Assembly: GCF_900083515.1 (NCBI RefSeq)
Contig: NZ_LT671858.1
Span: 1,680,001 to 1,712,000 of the forward strand
DNA: 32,000 nt
Reading direction: 5' to 3'
Origin: Cuniculiplasma divulgatum
Lineage (GTDB): Archaea; Thermoplasmatota; Thermoplasmata; Thermoplasmatales; Thermoplasmataceae
The notes under the pieces were generated by a model that was given only the letters and a program-made list of their open reading frames with translations, was not told the origin of the DNA and made no database searches. Positions 2,769 to 14,094 of this stretch are shown one piece after another. The position numbers and the translations under genes are program-made. Each line of letters opens with the position of its first letter. Position 1 is the first letter of the stretch.

Positions 2769-3688
2769 ATAATCGTTCCTGATGTGCCTTCTATTACATT
2801 ATTTGCGTCTTTAAGTGAACCTATCCTTGCAACTTTTCCACCATGTTCCACAAAACTCATGGCTGCAAGAACCTTTGGTCCCATGCTACCGGTTGAGAAC
2901 TGACCTTCATCATAATATTTCTTTATTTCGTTCAGCTTGACTTTATTCACTGCTTTTTGAGTACTTTTACCAAAATCAATGAATGCATTCTTCACATCAG
3001 TGAGTATGACAAACTCCTCGGCGTCCAGCATGTGTGCAAGAACATATGAAGCAAGATCCTTATCTATTACTGCATTTACTCCACTGTAATAATTGCCAGT
3101 TTTGATAACTGGAACGCCTCCACCGCCTGTACATATGGGGAGGAAGCCTGCGTTTAGTGAACTTAGAATTGCATTTTTTTCCAGTATATCAAGAGGCATT
3201 GGAGAAGGGACACATCTTCTCCAGCCCTTTTCCGTCCTTATAAATTCCCAGTCTGTGCTGTTCTTTAGTTCGCTGTATTCCTGATCTGAATAAACTCTTC
3301 CAACAGGTTTTGTTGGATTCATGAAAGCCCTATCATTTTTGTCCACGATGGTTCTTGTTAGTATATTTATTGCCTCTTTCCCAATGCCATATCTTGATCT
3401 TACATTCTCATATGCTTCAATTAATATTTCTCCAATCAGACCCTGAGACATTGCGCCAAGGGTATGCATAGGCATGGGTGGAGGCAATTCCTTTGTATAC
3501 TGATTTCTCAGTATTAGATCTCCGACCTGAGGACCGTTCCCGTGAGTGATTATGACATCTTCCTTAACGATTATATCAGTCAATGACTCAAAGGCATTTA
3601 CGGCCCTTCTTACCTGTGTTTCATAATCCCTTGAATCACCGCTCTCCATCAAGGCGTTTCCTCCAAGTGCGATTACAATTTTGCTCAT
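2759..3688 (-). CDS. arcC: carbamate kinase
   Basis: MSKIVIALGGNAL N-terminus, ITHGNGPQVG, GGGGVPV and a C-terminal GTSGTII motif, all typical of carbamate kinase. I prefer the ATG at 3688 (M11 of the track ORF). The 3' end overlaps the convergent PRT gene by 10 nt. Confidence 0.9.
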   Translation of the reverse strand: MSKIVIALGGNALMESGDSRDYETQVRRAVNAFESLTDIIVKEDVIITHGNGPQVGDLILRNQYTKELPPPMPMHTLGAMSQGLIGEILIEAYENVRSRYGIGKEAINILTRTIVDKNDRAFMNPTKPVGRVYSDQEYSELKNSTDWEFIRTEKGWRRCVPSPMPLDILEKNAILSSLNAGFLPICTGGGGVPVIKTGNYYSGVNAVIDKDLASYVLAHMLDAEEFVILTDVKNAFIDFGKSTQKAVNKVKLNEIKKYYDEGQFSTGSMGPKVLAAMSFVEHGGKVARIGSLKDANNVIEGTSGTIIQA

Positions 3689-3718
3689 TATATCACGGAA
3701 AACACAGATTTGTTGCAC

Positions 3719-3726
3719 CTATATAA
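3719..3726 (-). promoter_or_regulatory. candidate TATA box for arcC
   Basis: The minus strand reads CTTATATAGG, 31-38 nt upstream of the arcC ATG at 3688. Position and composition fit an archaeal TATA box with a short leader. No experimental support. Confidence 0.3.
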
Positions 3727-3815
3727 GAGAAAGCTCAGTTTTTAAAGGCTGGTTTCTGAAACTACGGAATTTAAAATAATGAAAGAGCTTTTAAATCATA
3801 CTGCAATTTTATTAT

Positions 3816-4202
3816 ATGAATGTGGAAATTCGAATTAAGAGTAAAAAGAGCTTTGATGATTTGTGTTCAGAAGTCCCTAAAAAAGTTAGTGAAGCAGGTT
3901 TTGGTGTACTTGCTGAGATTAAGACCAGTGATGTTCTTAAGTCAAAGGGTTATGAATATGCTCCTCTGAGAACTTTTGAGATATGCAATCCAGAATATGC
4001 TTCAAAAATACTGAATACAGATATCAGATTTGAGTCCATGCTTCCCTGCAGGATTGTGATAAAGGGAACAAAAGACGGAAGTGAGGTCATAGGGCTTCTA
4101 CCTGAGGCTATGGCGGGATTAGTTGGAAACAGAGATGCAGATGAAACAATGCTTAAGGTTCAGGAACTGGTTAAAAAAATTGTTAAAAATATTGCAGAAT
4201 AA
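3816..4202 (+). CDS. DUF302 domain protein
   Basis: 128 aa. The pattern FGVLAEI...FEICNPEYASKIL...MLPCRIVI matches my memory of the DUF302 family. TTTTAAAT box at 3789-3796 upstream. Confidence 0.7.
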   Translation: MNVEIRIKSKKSFDDLCSEVPKKVSEAGFGVLAEIKTSDVLKSKGYEYAPLRTFEICNPEYASKILNTDIRFESMLPCRIVIKGTKDGSEVIGLLPEAMAGLVGNRDADETMLKVQELVKKIVKNIAE

Positions 4203-5634: not shown

Positions 5635-5721
5635 TTAAGTATACCTCCTTTTAATATATAGAGTCAAGGAACATAGATTAATACTGATTTATTTTTACCT
5701 TATTACAGATATAAATGCTTT

Positions 5722-5739
5722 TATATATATATATATATA
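5722..5739. repeat. (TA)9 dinucleotide microsatellite
   Basis: Direct read: tatatatatatatatata, within the 389-bp non-coding region 5635-6023. Confidence 0.95.
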
Positions 5740-6023
5740 CATTTCTGTTATTTTAATTTAGTTTTCACAATAATTACTTTTCTTTTTCAAGTCTAATGTT
5801 TATCGGTTATTAGATGTATAAACTATCTTAAACTCTCTCAATTCAAAGAAATTTTGTATTCAGAGCATTATAAAATAATTTTAATATGTCAAATAGTAAA
5901 ATGTTCATTGCATTGAAACATTCTAAAAATGAACTCTTCCATTTCTATAAATTGTGGAAAGACATTTTAATTTAGTAATAATTTATGCGTAGTTTAAAAT
6001 CTATTATTAAAATTTTTAAAATT

Positions 6024-8554: not shown

Positions 8555-10237
8555 ATGACGAGATTTGTATTAATATCGGATAGCACATTGAGTTATGAAT
8601 ACAGGAATTTTCCACTTTTAGATTTTCTACCCTGTGCGCCTGGAAAGGCAATACCAGAAAGAGTTTACAAATTCCTGAAGGGGCCTGCTCCCCCTGCTAA
8701 ACCAAATGGAGAAACAGTATTTGCACCATATGCCATAAGGAAGCTTGAAGCCAGTCTTCTTACTAAATTCAAGAGAGAAGAAATAGCAGTTGCACACGAA
8801 GATCATCTTGAGAATTTTATCAAGGATGACACGGAAATCATAGCTGTTTCAACTATGGATCCACTGGGTATCGGACCGACAACAATGTCCTACTATGCAC
8901 TTTTTGGAGGTAATCTCGATGCATGGGTAAGGAGAGACTGGGATAAACTGATGGATAGAATCAACGTGGTAAGGAAGGGAAAGAAGGCAAAACTGATCGT
9001 TGGTGGACCAGGAGTATGGGAATTTACAATTCTAAGAGACGAGATAGAGAAATATCATTACGACTATGTATTTTCAGGTGAGGCAGATGATATTGCACCA
9101 ATGTTATTTGATCAGATAGCATCAGGTGATATAGACAAAAATGTTTTCAGAACTGGTTTTGTAAGTTATGATGAAAACTTCAAAAGAGTTACAATAAATG
9201 ATCCACTTTTCCTTTCAAGAGGATTTTCCAAGGCAGCATACCCGAGACTTGAGGAGATACCTAGAATTGTTGCACCTTCCATGAAGGGAATGGTTGAAGT
9301 TATGAGAGGTTGTGGTGTGGGGTGTGATTTCTGTGAAGTAACACTAAGACCGCTTAGATATGAGCCTACCGAAAATATCGTTGCTGAACTTGAGATAAAT
9401 GCATCCGCCGGGATAACTAATGGGTGGCTTCACTCAGATGAATTCTTCGGTTACAAGCACGGCAATTTATTTGCACCAAATGAAGAAGCACTATCAGAAC
9501 TTCTAACGGCAGTAATGAATGTTAAGGGTATCAAGACGTCAAATCCGACCCATGGACGTGTTTCCATACCTGCAGGTTATCCAGAAATGATGGAAAAACT
9601 TTCAAAGATACTTAAAACAGGACCGAGGAACTGGATAGGTATCCAAACAGGAGTGGAGACTGGTAGTGATGAACTTGCCAAAAAACATATGCCTAACAAG
9701 ACCCTTCCACTCAGAATTGGTCCAGACGGAAGCTGGCTGGATATTGTCTGGCAGGGAGTATACGTAGAAACAAAGAATTACTGGAGACCGGCATTCACAT
9801 TACAGGTTGGTCAGAACGAAGAGACTGAAGATGATAACTGGCAAACGGTTGAAATGATAAACAGACTCAGTAACTCATACTCTGAAGGTGGCAGACCTTT
9901 TGAGTTTACAGTCACACCACTTGTAAATGTTCCTCTTGGGAGAATAAAGTCCAGATCGCTCAACACAAATATGCTCACAAAGGATATGATGGCAGTTTAC
10001 TATGCATCCTACAGACATCTTTCAAAAATGGCCACAAGAGATGGTTTCAGGGACACCGATGGTAACTTCTTATCAAGGATAGGAACAGGATCACTTATTT
10101 CCGGTGGTGGATATCTTATGATGAAATACATCGAAAAGAGGGCTGCAAAGATGGGAGTGGATATAGAGAAAGTGAAGCACTATGGAGTAGAGCATTCCAG
10201 GGAAATCACATCCCTATCGGCACTTGCAAGAGCATAA
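8555..10237 (+). CDS. radical SAM protein (B12-binding-like N-terminal domain class, COG1032-like)
   Basis: CxxxCxxC cluster motif RGCGVGCDFCEV (Cys codons at 9311, 9323 and 9332). An N-terminal Rossmann-like region precedes it (IIAVSTMDP, LIVGGPG). SD GGGTGA lies 5 nt upstream of the ATG at 8555. Confidence 0.85.
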   Translation: MTRFVLISDSTLSYEYRNFPLLDFLPCAPGKAIPERVYKFLKGPAPPAKPNGETVFAPYAIRKLEASLLTKFKREEIAVAHEDHLENFIKDDTEIIAVSTMDPLGIGPTTMSYYALFGGNLDAWVRRDWDKLMDRINVVRKGKKAKLIVGGPGVWEFTILRDEIEKYHYDYVFSGEADDIAPMLFDQIASGDIDKNVFRTGFVSYDENFKRVTINDPLFLSRGFSKAAYPRLEEIPRIVAPSMKGMVEVMRGCGVGCDFCEVTLRPLRYEPTENIVAELEINASAGITNGWLHSDEFFGYKHGNLFAPNEEALSELLTAVMNVKGIKTSNPTHGRVSIPAGYPEMMEKLSKILKTGPRNWIGIQTGVETGSDELAKKHMPNKTLPLRIGPDGSWLDIVWQGVYVETKNYWRPAFTLQVGQNEETEDDNWQTVEMINRLSNSYSEGGRPFEFTVTPLVNVPLGRIKSRSLNTNMLTKDMMAVYYASYRHLSKMATRDGFRDTDGNFLSRIGTGSLISGGGYLMMKYIEKRAAKMGVDIEKVKHYGVEHSREITSLSALARA

Positions 10238-11338
10238 TTGGGAAAAATAATAAAAAATCCTGAACCCCTGGAGACATCTTATATTCCAGGGTACCTTATT
10301 AACAGAGATAATGAGATAGATTCTTTACGGAAGAATGTAGTATTTCCAGTAATGAGAGGTTTATCAAGCAACATTTTTATCTACGGTCAGTCAGGTACAG
10401 GTAAAACTGTTACACTGAGATTTCTTGCATCCATGGAAACTGGATGTTATTTCCACTATGAAAATGCCATATCAGTAGGTTCCTTCAAGAGAATTGTGGT
10501 AAAGATACTTAGTTCACTTGGAAAACAGGTCTCCGAGAAACAGCCATTTGATTCTCTATTCATGGCACTCAAGAGATCTACCTCCATGCCCATTATACTT
10601 GTTGTGGATGAATGTCTGAATCTTGTAAAGACTGATCCAGATGGATTATACAATGTGCTCAGGTCGGCAGAGCTTTATGATCTCAGAATGGGTCTGATCC
10701 TCGCATCAGTTGATAATCCTGCCCTCCACATGACATCCAGGGAGATCAGAAGAATCGGTATTTTCAACGAAATGAAATTTAATAAATATTCAACGTCAGA
10801 TCTTTCAGGCATTCTGGATCACCGGTCTAAGGAATCGCTTTATGATGGTGTTATTGAGCCAGAAATAATTGATGGTATAGCGTCCATAAGCGAAAGATCT
10901 GGAAGTGCAAGGATGGCCATAGAAATATTGCAGAAAGCTGCATTCATCAGTGAATATGATAATCGAAGGACAATTGACATGGAAACTGTCAGGAAGGCTT
11001 CTGCAATGATCAACCCGTATATTACTGAAAGTAAATTGATGGAACTGGATCAGAAAGAACTGCTGATCCTCCTGTCTATCTGTCAGATACTTGAAAGAAA
11101 CATTGATGCAACCATGGAACATATAACCGATCAGATAGGAGTAAATTTTGAAACAAGGGATCAACCAATCCCAGATCTTCCTCTTATCTACAGGGCAATA
11201 AGACACCTGGAATCTCTTGATATAGTTGAGGGTGTGAGGGAAAGTTTAGGCAGGGGAAAGGGGGTTAAAAAGAGATTTTTCATGGGCGATCTACCAGTTT
11301 CAGTCCTTATACAGAAAATATTTGAAATAATAGAATGA
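10238..11338 (+). CDS. cdc6: Orc1/Cdc6 family AAA+ protein (paralog without adjacent origin-like region)
   Basis: N-terminus NPEPLETSYIPGYLINRDNEIDSL is the typical Orc1 lead-in. Walker A YGQSGTGKT, Walker B ILVVDE, sensor-2-like GSARMAIEILQKA. C-terminal winged-helix region LDQKELLILLSICQIL. The TTG start directly abuts the TAA of the radical SAM gene, and no in-frame ATG exists until codon 39. Confidence 0.85.
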   Translation: MGKIIKNPEPLETSYIPGYLINRDNEIDSLRKNVVFPVMRGLSSNIFIYGQSGTGKTVTLRFLASMETGCYFHYENAISVGSFKRIVVKILSSLGKQVSEKQPFDSLFMALKRSTSMPIILVVDECLNLVKTDPDGLYNVLRSAELYDLRMGLILASVDNPALHMTSREIRRIGIFNEMKFNKYSTSDLSGILDHRSKESLYDGVIEPEIIDGIASISERSGSARMAIEILQKAAFISEYDNRRTIDMETVRKASAMINPYITESKLMELDQKELLILLSICQILERNIDATMEHITDQIGVNFETRDQPIPDLPLIYRAIRHLESLDIVEGVRESLGRGKGVKKRFFMGDLPVSVLIQKIFEIIE

Positions 11339-11342
11339 AGAT

Positions 11343-13343
11343 TTAGAACCACCATGAAAGATCTGATTGCTTTTTTACAATGAGTTTGGAGAAGAGAAAA
11401 TCGAATGGCTCAAAGTTTCTAAGAAGAATCCTGGTGTAGAACTTCCTGTCAACCGGTTGATCATCAAAGTTAACAACCTTTTTTACTGAATCATTGATTA
11501 TTACATTCATGGATTGCCCTGGCATGATCTCGATCCCATCCTCCATCAGCGATTCCATTGATGCTTTCTGTATGTTCTTAATCATATAATCCTCATAATA
11601 TTTTGACGGCCTCAGAGTGAGTGAAAAATCGCTTTTCGGAAATCTGTCAATGTTTCTTACATATCTGTCTTTTAATTCTATATATCTTGTGTATATGGAG
11701 TGATCATTTACCCCCGGCTCAAGTTCTTCAAGTAGCCTCAGTATATCTTCCTGAGCCCTTATTACCAGTGACGGAGAATCTGAACGTCTAATCCCTATTC
11801 CTCTCACCTTGTAGCTCCCGTCATATTTCAGTCCGAAATATCTGTTTAACGCACCAAGACCAGATCTTGCTGGCAGAAACACCATCCACTTATAGTATCC
11901 ATCCATCACTATATTTATGGATGTGTTCTTCCTCACCCTTTTCAGAAGATTTTGTATGTTCCCATTTCCCTGAATAAACAGTGAATCCACAATTCCATGT
12001 ATGGGGGTGAAACCCTCAGATTCGCCTATCCTCATGGCCGTCTCAAGTGCCCATCTTCCAACGGAAGTTATGGCTTCATGCATCTCTATCTTTCCAAACC
12101 TTGCGTTCTTGAAACCTGTGTATCCAAAGGATGTTAGAAGAAGCCATTTCAGAACCTTATCCCTCAGTTCAAAATCTCTTCTTATCCTCTTATTATATTT
12201 GTATATAAGTCTCCTCTTGAGCAGTATGTCAAGTGATGAGGGGATGAATCCTTTCAAAACGCTGGTACTGTATGGATTATCCCCAGGGAGTTTTACCTGT
12301 TTATCTGTCCCTATTGTTTCTGGTGACATATTGAAATGATGCATTATGGATGGATACATTGACGAGAAGTCAATCTCGTAAACATTTCGATAAAATCCCG
12401 GGAGCGGCTGAAATACGTATCCTCCACGATCACTTTCCATGAAAGCACTCAGTGGCTTTGGATCTTCATGATCATCCTTGTCTGTAATTATAAGAATCCC
12501 TGATCTTATGGCCTCGTAGTTTTCCAGTGATGATACAGCAGTTCCAGGTGTTACCCTGCATACTGTCTCTGGAGAGAGCCCGGTTATGCGACTTATCTCA
12601 AATATGCCTTCAATGCCGCCTTCTTCATACATGAAAGAATTCCCATTTATTGATATCTTTCCATTTATGTGTATTGAAGGTGTGGAATATGAGACTCTTC
12701 CATATGACATGAATGATCTGCCACCACTTATTCTGTATCCTATCCTCTTACCGATGATCATGTCTATGCGTGAAAGGAATGTTGCCATTGAAGTTGCATC
12801 GTAGTATATTATTATGGGAAAACGCTGGAAATTATCCATAAAGAATTTCATGGCATCCATTTCGTTGGTGAATTCCACACCATTTATTTCAGCATGTTTC
12901 CATCTGTATCCATTGTATTTAACATTGAACTTCATGTAGGGTATTTCTGGATCATGATCCAGAGGGTTTTCTATGGAAAAATAGGTTAAATTACTGGCAG
13001 CCATGATCTTCAGTCCAGGATCGAGGAGACCATTATATATCCTGAATTTCCTTCCATATCCTATGCCCTTTATTATTTTTATGAATTCCCTTTCCCTGAT
13101 CTGTGGTATATAGATTCTCAAACCTTCAATTCTTGAATATACATCTCTTTCCACCGAATGTTCATAAACTATATCTCCAGCATCTTCCATTTGCCTTTCA
13201 AGAAATTCCATATCAAACTGGTCTCCGGTGACGAATATCCAGTTCCTCCAGTGGATCTTTTCATATTGTATTTTGCCATTTTCATAAATCCAGAGTGCAG
13301 GATTTTTCCCTGCTGTAAGATTGACTATGGTTCTACTGCCCAT
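11343..13343 (-). CDS. polB: family B DNA polymerase, degenerate catalytic motifs (PolB2/Dpo2-like 'inactivated PolB' type)
   Basis: Motif A EIDFSSMYPSIM (12342-12371) and VRGIGIRRSDS (the tRGxExxRRD signature) identify the fold. Motif C reads HGIVDS instead of YGDTDS (11976-11999). Motif B is KWLLLTSFGYTG. Exo I, II and III motifs are not recognisable. At 666 aa it is shorter than replicative PolB. Confidence 0.85.
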   Translation of the reverse strand: MGSRTIVNLTAGKNPALWIYENGKIQYEKIHWRNWIFVTGDQFDMEFLERQMEDAGDIVYEHSVERDVYSRIEGLRIYIPQIREREFIKIIKGIGYGRKFRIYNGLLDPGLKIMAASNLTYFSIENPLDHDPEIPYMKFNVKYNGYRWKHAEINGVEFTNEMDAMKFFMDNFQRFPIIIYYDATSMATFLSRIDMIIGKRIGYRISGGRSFMSYGRVSYSTPSIHINGKISINGNSFMYEEGGIEGIFEISRITGLSPETVCRVTPGTAVSSLENYEAIRSGILIITDKDDHEDPKPLSAFMESDRGGYVFQPLPGFYRNVYEIDFSSMYPSIMHHFNMSPETIGTDKQVKLPGDNPYSTSVLKGFIPSSLDILLKRRLIYKYNKRIRRDFELRDKVLKWLLLTSFGYTGFKNARFGKIEMHEAITSVGRWALETAMRIGESEGFTPIHGIVDSLFIQGNGNIQNLLKRVRKNTSINIVMDGYYKWMVFLPARSGLGALNRYFGLKYDGSYKVRGIGIRRSDSPSLVIRAQEDILRLLEELEPGVNDHSIYTRYIELKDRYVRNIDRFPKSDFSLTLRPSKYYEDYMIKNIQKASMESLMEDGIEIMPGQSMNVIINDSVKKVVNFDDQPVDRKFYTRILLRNFEPFDFLFSKLIVKKQSDLSWWF

Positions 13344-13560
13344 GATCTATTCTATCCATCATTTCCATGATTACTGATATGAGAAAGGCTGTCTCTGGAG
13401 ATAACTTTGAAAGGTCCATCTGAGAGGCATGAATCCTACCCATGAGGAGTATTTCATCAAATAACCTCCTGTCTCTTTCAGGCATGGAGCTCTCCATGGA
13501 CTTCATTGCCTTTGCAAGACTTTCCATAACCTGCCTTGACGTGTACGTGTTTCTGCCCAT
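13333..13560 (-). CDS. hypothetical small helical protein, translationally coupled to polB
   Basis: 75 aa. The ATG at 13560 is preceded on the minus strand by GGGGGTGATGAGAA, a strong SD with 5-nt spacing. Its 3' end overlaps the polB ATG by 11 nt, and its 5' end overlaps the upstream ORF by 58 nt. No family recognised. Confidence 0.5.
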   Translation of the reverse strand: MGRNTYTSRQVMESLAKAMKSMESSMPERDRRLFDEILLMGRIHASQMDLSKLSPETAFLISVIMEMMDRIDHGQ

Positions 13561-13994
13561 TTCTCATCACCCCCTGTATCTGGCATGTAAAATGCTCTCT
13601 TCATTAAGTGGTTTGTTCTCACACTTATGGGTGGTTTTCCAATGAATTCAACGAATGCAAAAAGTCCACGGGTAATGGGCCATACGGCCATTGCATCCAT
13701 CATATAGCTTACGGATTCTGAGTCCCAGTCCTCAACTGCCCTGCTATTAAGAACCATAGCACATGCTGTTGTCTCCTGCTCCCCCATCACCCTTATGAGC
13801 TGGTGAGATGTAAGTATTCTCTGTATCTTTACATTTCTGACTGAGAGATGTGAGAGGAATGAAGGGGAGAGCATTATTCCATCGGTTATAAGAAGGTTCA
13901 GTGAATCAACACCTTCGAATTTCTCCAGTATTTGTCCCTGAGCTATCTCAGAGAATGAATTGTATACAATTATGGTCAGTGAGCCTCTGTACAT
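13503..13994 (-). CDS. hypothetical protein, first cistron of the polB operon
   Basis: 163 aa, same strand as and overlapping the next cistron. A CTTATTAA box (plus strand 14018-14025) is centred about 27 nt upstream of the ATG, consistent with a leaderless transcript. No motif recognised with confidence. Confidence 0.45.
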   Translation of the reverse strand: MYRGSLTIIVYNSFSEIAQGQILEKFEGVDSLNLLITDGIMLSPSFLSHLSVRNVKIQRILTSHQLIRVMGEQETTACAMVLNSRAVEDWDSESVSYMMDAMAVWPITRGLFAFVEFIGKPPISVRTNHLMKRAFYMPDTGGDEKWAETRTRQGRLWKVLQRQ

Positions 13995-14017
13995 AAATTT
14001 GAAAACTCTTATTTCCC

Positions 14018-14025
14018 TTAATAAG
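14018..14025 (-). promoter_or_regulatory. candidate TATA box for the ORF163-ORF75-polB operon
   Basis: The minus strand reads CTTATTAA, centred about 27 nt upstream of the ATG at 13994, within the 100-bp divergent spacer shared with aroB. Confidence 0.3.
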
Positions 14026-14094
14026 CTTTGGCATGAGAAAAAAAATGAAAAAATGTAATTTTTCCGCGAAATTCAACACGAAAAGGTGGGCAAC

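Follow-up and report, generated by a model that had tools for sequence, protein, structure and literature searches.

A PolB2 mutasome-type operon convergent with a divergent Orc1/Cdc6 paralog in Cuniculiplasma divulgatum and related Thermoplasmatales

We analysed a 32,000-nt stretch of DNA (the window; positions 1680001-1712000 of the single-contig 1.94-Mb Cuniculiplasma divulgatum genome, G000:C1), in which a gene for an Orc1/Cdc6 paralog meets, tail to tail, an operon encoding a family B DNA polymerase of the PolB2 type. By the table of open reading frames (ORFs) and the sequence itself, the Orc1/Cdc6 ORF occupies window positions 10238-11338 on the plus strand (366 aa), opens with a TTG at 10238 immediately 3′ of the TAA (10235-10237) of a radical SAM gene, and closes with a TGA at 11336-11338. 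The polymerase ORF (11343-13343, minus strand, 666 aa) has its stop at 11343-11345 in plus-strand coordinates, leaving 4 bases (agat) between the stop codons of the two convergent genes. The minus strand carries two more ORFs, at 13333-13560 (75 aa) and 13503-13994 (163 aa), which share an overlap; the first of them also runs into the polymerase start. As relatives conserve both, they are real genes. Upstream of this three-gene operon and on the same strand lie a TATA-like box, AAAGCTTATTAAG (14017-14029, read from the sequence, ~25-35 nt upstream of the first ATG), and a tandem octamer, ATTACATTTTTTCATTTTTTTT (14043-14058). An initial annotation of this DNA had remarked on the 4-nt, tail-to-tail spacing and had left the two small ORFs as unknowns; the spacing proved correct when the coordinates were re-read, and both ORFs turn out to be identifiable (below). 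As a special feature, the 4-nt gap was rejected: judged by crude gene calls, 33% of 322 convergent pairs in the same genome are separated by 4 nt or less or overlap. The spacing is thus ordinary in a compact genome, and what goes beyond chance is the degree to which the pairing is conserved.

The polymerase, third gene of the operon, is assigned by its sequence to the PolB2 (Dpo2-type) branch of family B. It scores 519.6 bits against NCBIfam model NF004416 (cut-off 516) and 57 bits against Pfam DNA_pol_B (PF00136); motif A (DFSSMYPS) is retained and motif B (KxxxxTSFGYTG) is conserved. Motif C reads HGIVDS, which, aligned to YGDTDS of PDB entry 5MDN, places an Ile where the first catalytic Asp would stand, and this hexapeptide is invariant among 12 aligned PolB2 orthologs. 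An IVD or IID version of motif C has been reported for haloarchaeal and S. islandicus PolB2 and is a hallmark of PolB2/Dpo2 (PMC11791011). The protein is ~110-130 aa shorter than canonical PolB, its residues 1-250 match no solved PolB in sequence searches, and a second, canonical 793-aa PolB is encoded in the genome at 491,823.

The second gene of the operon, the 75-aa ORF at 13333-13560, is assigned to PPB2 (arCOG07300 family) on the strength of its N-terminal arm and a family hidden Markov model (HMM). PPB2 has been defined by an N-terminal ‘MGRT’ arm in a small protein of about 75-90 aa encoded directly upstream of PolB2 (PMC11791011). The ORF begins MGRNTYTSR, and the MGR(N/S/T) start with Arg3 and Arg9 is invariant across 29 orthologs. 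In Methanomassiliicoccales, Methanoregula, Methanoperedens and Chloroflexi/bacterial loci, the ORF that immediately precedes PolB2 is recovered by the HMM built from this family. In the window, PPB2 shares 11 nt with the start of PolB2 and 58 nt with the 3′-end of the first operon gene.

That first gene, encoding the 163-aa protein at 13503-13994, has no match in Pfam or NCBIfam. When its family alignment was compared by hhalign with the genome's own RadA and RadB, the probability stayed below 1%, with no sequence-level similarity; a sequence-level link to RadA/RadB is thereby unsupported, and the identity given here rests on predicted fold and gene position. An AlphaFold2 model computed from a 24-sequence alignment (pLDDT 80.4, pTM 0.75) retrieved RecA, FlaH, UvsX, Rad51, KaiC and DnaB as top Foldseek matches in the PDB (E from 3e-4; TM 0.47-0.57), a moderate match of the predicted structure to the RecA/RadA core fold. 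The 163-aa chain lacks the N-terminal oligomerisation domain, starting directly with the first core strand, and contains a Walker-B-like strand (LLITDGI) and no GxxxxGK[ST] (Walker A) motif anywhere along its length. The combination of a predicted RecA-like fold with a missing P-loop leads us to identify it as the iRadA of the published operon in a strongly decayed form, that is, as a predicted inactivated, N-terminally truncated RadA (iRadA; arCOG07763/04294/08101). Because hhalign similarity is lacking, common descent with RadA is less certain, although the fold assignment is not affected; the most decayed iRadA arCOG likewise has no detectable similarity to RadA (Makarova et al. 2014, PMC4104785). 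As a separate observation, the C-terminal tail of iRadA (13503-13560), encoded within the 58-nt overlap with the PPB2 start, is genus-specific and ends in RQGRLWKVLQRQ, a weak PCNA-box-like motif (QxxLxxhh); in other genera a conserved (L)YxWEE forms the C-terminus instead.

The convergent gene at 10238-11338 encodes an Orc1/Cdc6 homolog that stands well apart from the initiators. It matches Pfam Cdc6_lid with 59 bits, together with AAA_22 and AAA_16, and TIGR02928 with 145 bits over its full length, below the 181-bit cut-off; its match to the winged-helix domain (Cdc6_C) is weak (E 0.0085). Walker A (GxSGTGKT), Walker B (DE) and sensor-2 (GSAR) motifs are conserved in 29 orthologs. By phmmer, the protein scores 62 bits to 1FNN, 61 to ApeORC1, 57 to SsoOrc1-1 and 31 to ApeORC2; set against these 57-62 bits to initiator structures, the canonical Orc1 of the same genome reaches 283 bits to SsoOrc1-1 and 256 to ApeORC1. 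A maximum-likelihood tree places canonical Orc1 proteins in one clade (100/99) and PolB2-linked paralogs in another (100/99), and groups the short Orc1 paralogs of three other families of the order (f2, f3 and f7) on the paralog side (80/96), from which the paralog lineage is older than its adjacency to PolB2 in the window's own family. These comparisons place the protein in a divergent, short, fast-evolving paralog lineage of Thermoplasmatales, and it is most likely not a replication initiator. The genome holds four Orc1 homologs, the canonical one being encoded at 1,407,439 (379 bits), 283 kb from the paralog. The two others (G000:C1 65,238-66,185 and 1,721,287-1,722,234, the latter starting ~9 kb beyond the window end) are near-identical and sit on a very long tree branch. 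The 7-8 kb regions around them share partial homology (79-94% identity at the DNA level) and probably represent two related integrated elements, each with an initiator of its own.

To describe how far the pairing extends, 119 genomes of the order were searched with both proteins, the Orc1 paralog and PolB2, and grouped by GTDB family. The window's own family (f1) was sampled with 52 genomes from 18 genera. In all 47 of its genomes in which the two genes share a contig, they lie side by side in convergent orientation, which covers 17 of the 18 genera; in two further genomes the polymerase lies at a contig end, and three (G007, G031 and G077, from two separate genera) lack both genes, the 18th genus being without either. 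A phyletic and positional association, proposed in the initial annotation as a check on its idea, is thus borne out within this family by adjacency in 47/47 genomes and joint loss in three. Genes flanking the pair differ between genera. Across the 29 loci in which both ORFs were read, 19 show overlapping 3′-ends (14-48 nt) and nine have gaps of 4-47 nt; two Thermoplasma-sized genomes show 3′ overlaps of 35 and 50 nt. Elsewhere in the order the arrangement changes: family f3 has PolB2, with a related short Orc1 paralog located 45-80 kb away from it and next to canonical Orc1, and family f5 has PolB2 and no second Orc1. In a species collection of 80 named PolB2 loci, the 14 from Thermoplasmataceae are the only ones with an Orc1 gene within 7 kb. 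Two observations from other families stand apart from this survey. At f3 loci L143-L145 (G075, G012, G040), the short paralog and canonical Orc1 are 4-5 kb apart. Family f6 (L139 and L140, in G005 and G018) carries a shorter (about 580-610 aa) and much more divergent PolB2-like gene, with 122-134 bits to the family HMM and no recognisable PPB2 or iRadA upstream.

The promoter region of the operon contains a second conserved feature. The tandem octamer, with family consensus CTCATTTnCTCATTTT, lies just upstream of the operon's TATA-like box, and its window copy ends 49 nt before the iRadA start. A single copy of the element occupies this position in 40 of 44 f1 loci, in surroundings that cannot be aligned between genera. 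AT-rich boxes occupy the TATA-box position in relatives too, and the window's box (14017-14029) probably acts as a TATA box; a scan for sigma-70 promoters and terminators was uninformative for an archaeon. In f3, the second family of the order with the element, a triple TTCATTTT repeat stands at the PolB2 operon, though the paralog is located beside canonical Orc1. The octamer was absent in f5 (PolB2, no second Orc1) and in all 61 loci from outside Thermoplasmatales. The octamer and the short Orc1 paralog lineage therefore occur together, f1 and f3 having both and f5 neither, a co-distribution that rests on very few independent events. This order-wide tandem octamer may be new and is a candidate binding site of the Orc1 paralog; as a sharply defined promoter element it can now be offered as a testable site.

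Two extensions of this idea were considered and set aside. A genome-wide octamer regulon is not evident: a loose octamer pattern gave 117 matches in the genome, among which only two sites occupy promoter-like positions, the PolB2 promoter and one doublet (593,052/593,143). That doublet of TGAATCATTTTTTACATTTCATCATAA (G000:C1:593,052-593,156) has its copies 91 nt apart and lies upstream of a 92-aa ORF. Autoregulation of the paralog through the octamer would fit only the Oxyplasma lineage (Oxyplasma meridianum and relatives; L035, L045, L046, L048), where the element (ACCATTTACTCATTTTTTT) is seen in the 77-nt spacer ahead of the orc1 paralog gene as well and is hence present on both convergent units; it was not found before the paralog gene in other genera or in f3. 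Equating the octamer with the Sulfolobus ANTTTC motif was rejected as well, since ATTTTC is present in some variants and missing from many others, including the window's, and the likeness is too short.

A biochemical handle on the paralog comes from Thermoplasma. Genome G027 (1,564,906 bp), which we take to be that of T. acidophilum, encodes a PolB2-linked Orc1 paralog of 366 aa and 41.2 kDa at about 478.8 kb and a canonical Orc1 of 404 aa and 45.6 kDa. Its paralog shares about 38% identity with that of the window and falls in the same clade of the tree. The two Cdc6 proteins studied in this species are TaCdc6-1 (Ta0451m, 42 kDa) and TaCdc6-2 (Ta0636, 46.5 kDa) (Haugland et al. 2006 and 2008, PMC1669734, PMC2627522). 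The matching sizes and the position beside PolB2 make TaCdc6-1 the likely ortholog of the window's Orc1 paralog, the likeness extending to length (366 aa), mass (41.2 kDa against the reported 42 kDa), convergent orientation beside PolB2 and tree clade; this link, based on size and gene position, may be a new detail. TaCdc6-1 neither binds the MCM helicase nor affects its activity, and only TaCdc6-2 binds and stimulates MCM (PMC1669734, PMC2627522), which argues against the paralog being an initiator. TaCdc6-1 has already been purified and antibodies to it exist, giving a direct handle on euryarchaeal Orc1 paralogs as regulators of the PolB2 mutasome.

Much of what the locus presents is already known, and it is an ordinary example of a published PolB2 operon with its usual Orc1/Cdc6 neighbour. 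The PolB2-iRadA-arCOG07300 operon was described by Makarova, Krupovic & Koonin (2014), together with an arORC2 gene nearby in many euryarchaea (PMC4104785). In the survey by Timinskas, Timinskas & Venclovas (2025), 364 of about 1885 polB2 neighbourhoods contained orc1/cdc6, an association that these authors tied to Orc1-2 damage signalling (PMC11791011). In Sulfolobus, induction of dpo2 requires Orc1-2, acting through the ANTTTC promoter motif (Sun et al. 2018, PMC6061795), in line with the Sulfolobus genetics to which the initial annotation referred. The suggestion made there of a conserved functional link between an Orc1 paralog and PolB2 is supported by the conserved adjacency and by this literature, and, having been published before, is not new; as reasoning it is sound, and such a link is plausible in this lineage.

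Building on the four gene identities, the family-wide adjacency and joint absence of the pair and the conserved promoter element, we favour, with moderate confidence, a model in which the locus is the Thermoplasmatales version of the PolB2 mutasome operon iRadA-PPB2-PolB2, equipped with a dedicated non-initiator Orc1 paralog that regulates or assists it via the octamer. The operon would supply a proofreading-poor family B polymerase and two small partners, thought to carry out damage-tolerant (translesion or extender) synthesis. By analogy with the activation of dpo2 by Orc1-2 in Sulfolobus, the paralog would be a dedicated AAA+/winged-helix regulator or cofactor of the operon, acting at the conserved tandem octamer upstream of the TATA-like box, and the product of the operon would then bypass lesions or extend past them. 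Both the binding of the octamer by the paralog and the induction of the operon by damage in this lineage are inferred from these comparisons. More specifically, we propose only tentatively that the short Orc1 paralog of Thermoplasmatales (the TaCdc6-1 lineage) is a local transcription factor that binds CTCATTTnCTCATTTT and turns on iRadA-PPB2-PolB2 after DNA damage. If true, this would give euryarchaea a one-operon equivalent of the global Sulfolobus regulator Orc1-2, and would explain the 20-year-old puzzle of why TaCdc6-1 ignores MCM.

Several findings weigh against this model. No Orc1 gene lies within 7 kb at the 66 other PolB2 loci of the species collection, so the operon does not need a neighbouring Orc1. 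The octamer is present in f3, where paralog and PolB2 are 45-80 kb apart, and most genera have no copy of it in front of the paralog gene. Genes overlapping at their 3′-ends are hard to separate, and adjacency and joint loss could in part be mechanical. Even without stress, exponential cells each contain 3000-4000 molecules of TaCdc6-1, and TaCdc6-2 as well as TaCdc6-1 is abundant in growing cells (PMC2627522); this constitutive abundance differs from the strong induction of Sulfolobus Orc1-2. Finally, the paralog is only a possible ortholog of crenarchaeal Orc1-2, A. pernix ORC2 reaching just 31 bits to it. As to expression in the organism itself, the main text of the C. divulgatum cold-shock proteome paper mentions neither the Orc1 paralog nor PolB2.

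Three other explanations were weighed against the same data. The mechanical argument, taken to its end, holds that the Orc1 paralog and the PolB2 unit are neighbours with no regulatory link, kept side by side because abutting or overlapping 3′-ends forbid breakpoints and lost together because one deletion removes both. This would fit the 14-48 nt overlaps at 19 of 29 loci, the third of convergent pairs that are equally tight in this genome, the separation of the genes in f3 and the missing second Orc1 in f5, and the 66 loci from outside the family that have no Orc1 within 7 kb. We nevertheless consider it unlikely: loci with gaps of 4-47 nt would tolerate a breakpoint and none was seen, adjacency was kept in 17 of 18 genera (the 18th having neither gene) while both flanks were reshuffled, orc1/cdc6 is independently enriched beside polB2 elsewhere, mostly in haloarchaea (PMC11791011 Table S1; PMC4104785), and Sulfolobus genetics demonstrates a real link between Orc1-2 and dpo2 (PMC6061795). 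Still more doubtful, in our view, is that the paralog, rather than being a transcription factor, works with the PolB2 complex at the protein level, recruiting or loading the mutasome or replicative machinery at stalled forks, or serving alternative initiation. The gene is never found inside the operon and always lies on the opposite strand, published heteropentamer models of the mutasome need no Orc1 subunit (PMC11791011), and TaCdc6-1 does not interact with MCM (PMC1669734), observations set against the full, conserved set of ATPase motifs (Walker A, Walker B, sensor 2), the constitutive abundance of the T. acidophilum counterpart (PMC2627522), the clamp-binding motifs borne by iRadA and PolB2 of many species (PMC11791011) and the replication-related role that Makarova et al. 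(2014) proposed for the arORC2 neighbour (PMC4104785).

The initial annotation had also called the paralog origin-less, which bears on the explanation to which we give the least credence, namely that the paralog is a second replication initiator for a nearby origin and PolB2 a bystander. The detrended cumulative GC-skew has its minimum at 1,683,696 (window 3,696) and its maximum at 1,420,532, near canonical Orc1. Window positions 5635-6023 (1,685,635-1,686,023; 389 bp, 20% G+C) form the most AT-rich intergenic stretch of at least 300 bp in the genome, 4.2 kb upstream of the paralog and 2 kb from the skew minimum, and may mark the point where replication starts or ends. The skew, however, gives only a weak signal, which follows gene orientation; three genes intervene between the AT-rich stretch and the paralog; 14 other family loci show nothing comparably AT-rich in the neighbourhood of the paralog; and TaCdc6-1 does not bind MCM (PMC1669734). 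Classical origin recognition box (ORB) dyads (TTCCAnTGGAA and variants) are absent from the AT-rich stretch and form no cluster near either Orc1 gene or elsewhere in the genome. The lack of ORB-type repeats speaks against an origin there, the skew minimum and the most AT-rich intergenic region, 4-6 kb upstream, caution against the origin-less description, and we treat a local origin near the paralog as a minor rival to a regulatory or assisting role at the PolB2 operon.

The radical SAM gene (8555-10237, plus strand, 560 aa) that directly precedes the paralog had been counted with the pair and the two small ORFs in a five-gene block. G007, G031 and G077 lack both the Orc1 paralog and PolB2 but retain this gene at 69-71% identity; it is unlinked from the pair in G023 and G039, and lies ~170 kb from it in G027. 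Persisting without the pair and unlinked in G027, it was rejected as a module member: the block is really four genes and an unrelated neighbour, and the radical SAM gene should not be annotated within a repair module. It is single-copy and, at 69-71% identity throughout the family, far more conserved than its window neighbours. Its product has a weak B12-binding-type N-terminal match (TIGR04013, 47 bits), and its sole PDB relative is 9CCB (E 2e-6).

Among known systems, the locus most closely resembles the PolB2 mutasome operon of class 1a as defined by Timinskas et al. (PMC11791011), with which it shares the order iRadA-PPB2-PolB2 with overlapping coding ends, the IVD replacing DxD in PolB2, the MGR(T/N/S) arm of PPB2, an iRadA devoid of its ATPase site and N-terminal domain, and an Orc1/Cdc6 neighbour. 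It differs in that iRadA is very short here (163 aa) and unrecognisable by sequence, in that the f1 Orc1 gene is always convergent and usually overlaps the PolB2 3′-end, and in the lineage-specific tandem octamer of its promoter. With the Orc1-2/dpo2 system of Sulfolobus/Saccharolobus islandicus it has in common a putative non-initiator Orc1 paralog functionally tied to a PolB2 operon; regulation there proceeds via a short T-rich motif (ANTTTC) just upstream of the core promoter and Orc1-2 is a global regulator, whereas the element found here is a different, tandem octamer at essentially one promoter in the genome. A more distant parallel is the E. coli Pol V mutasome (UmuD′2C-RecA, under LexA control), which likewise combines an error-prone polymerase, a RecA-family partner, a small oligomeric subunit and a regulator encoded nearby; in bacterial PolB2 operons the nearby regulator is lexA. 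The polymerase, however, belongs to family Y in Pol V and to family B here, the RecA-like partner here is predicted to be catalytically dead, and the putative regulator is an AAA+ Orc1 paralog rather than a self-cleaving repressor.

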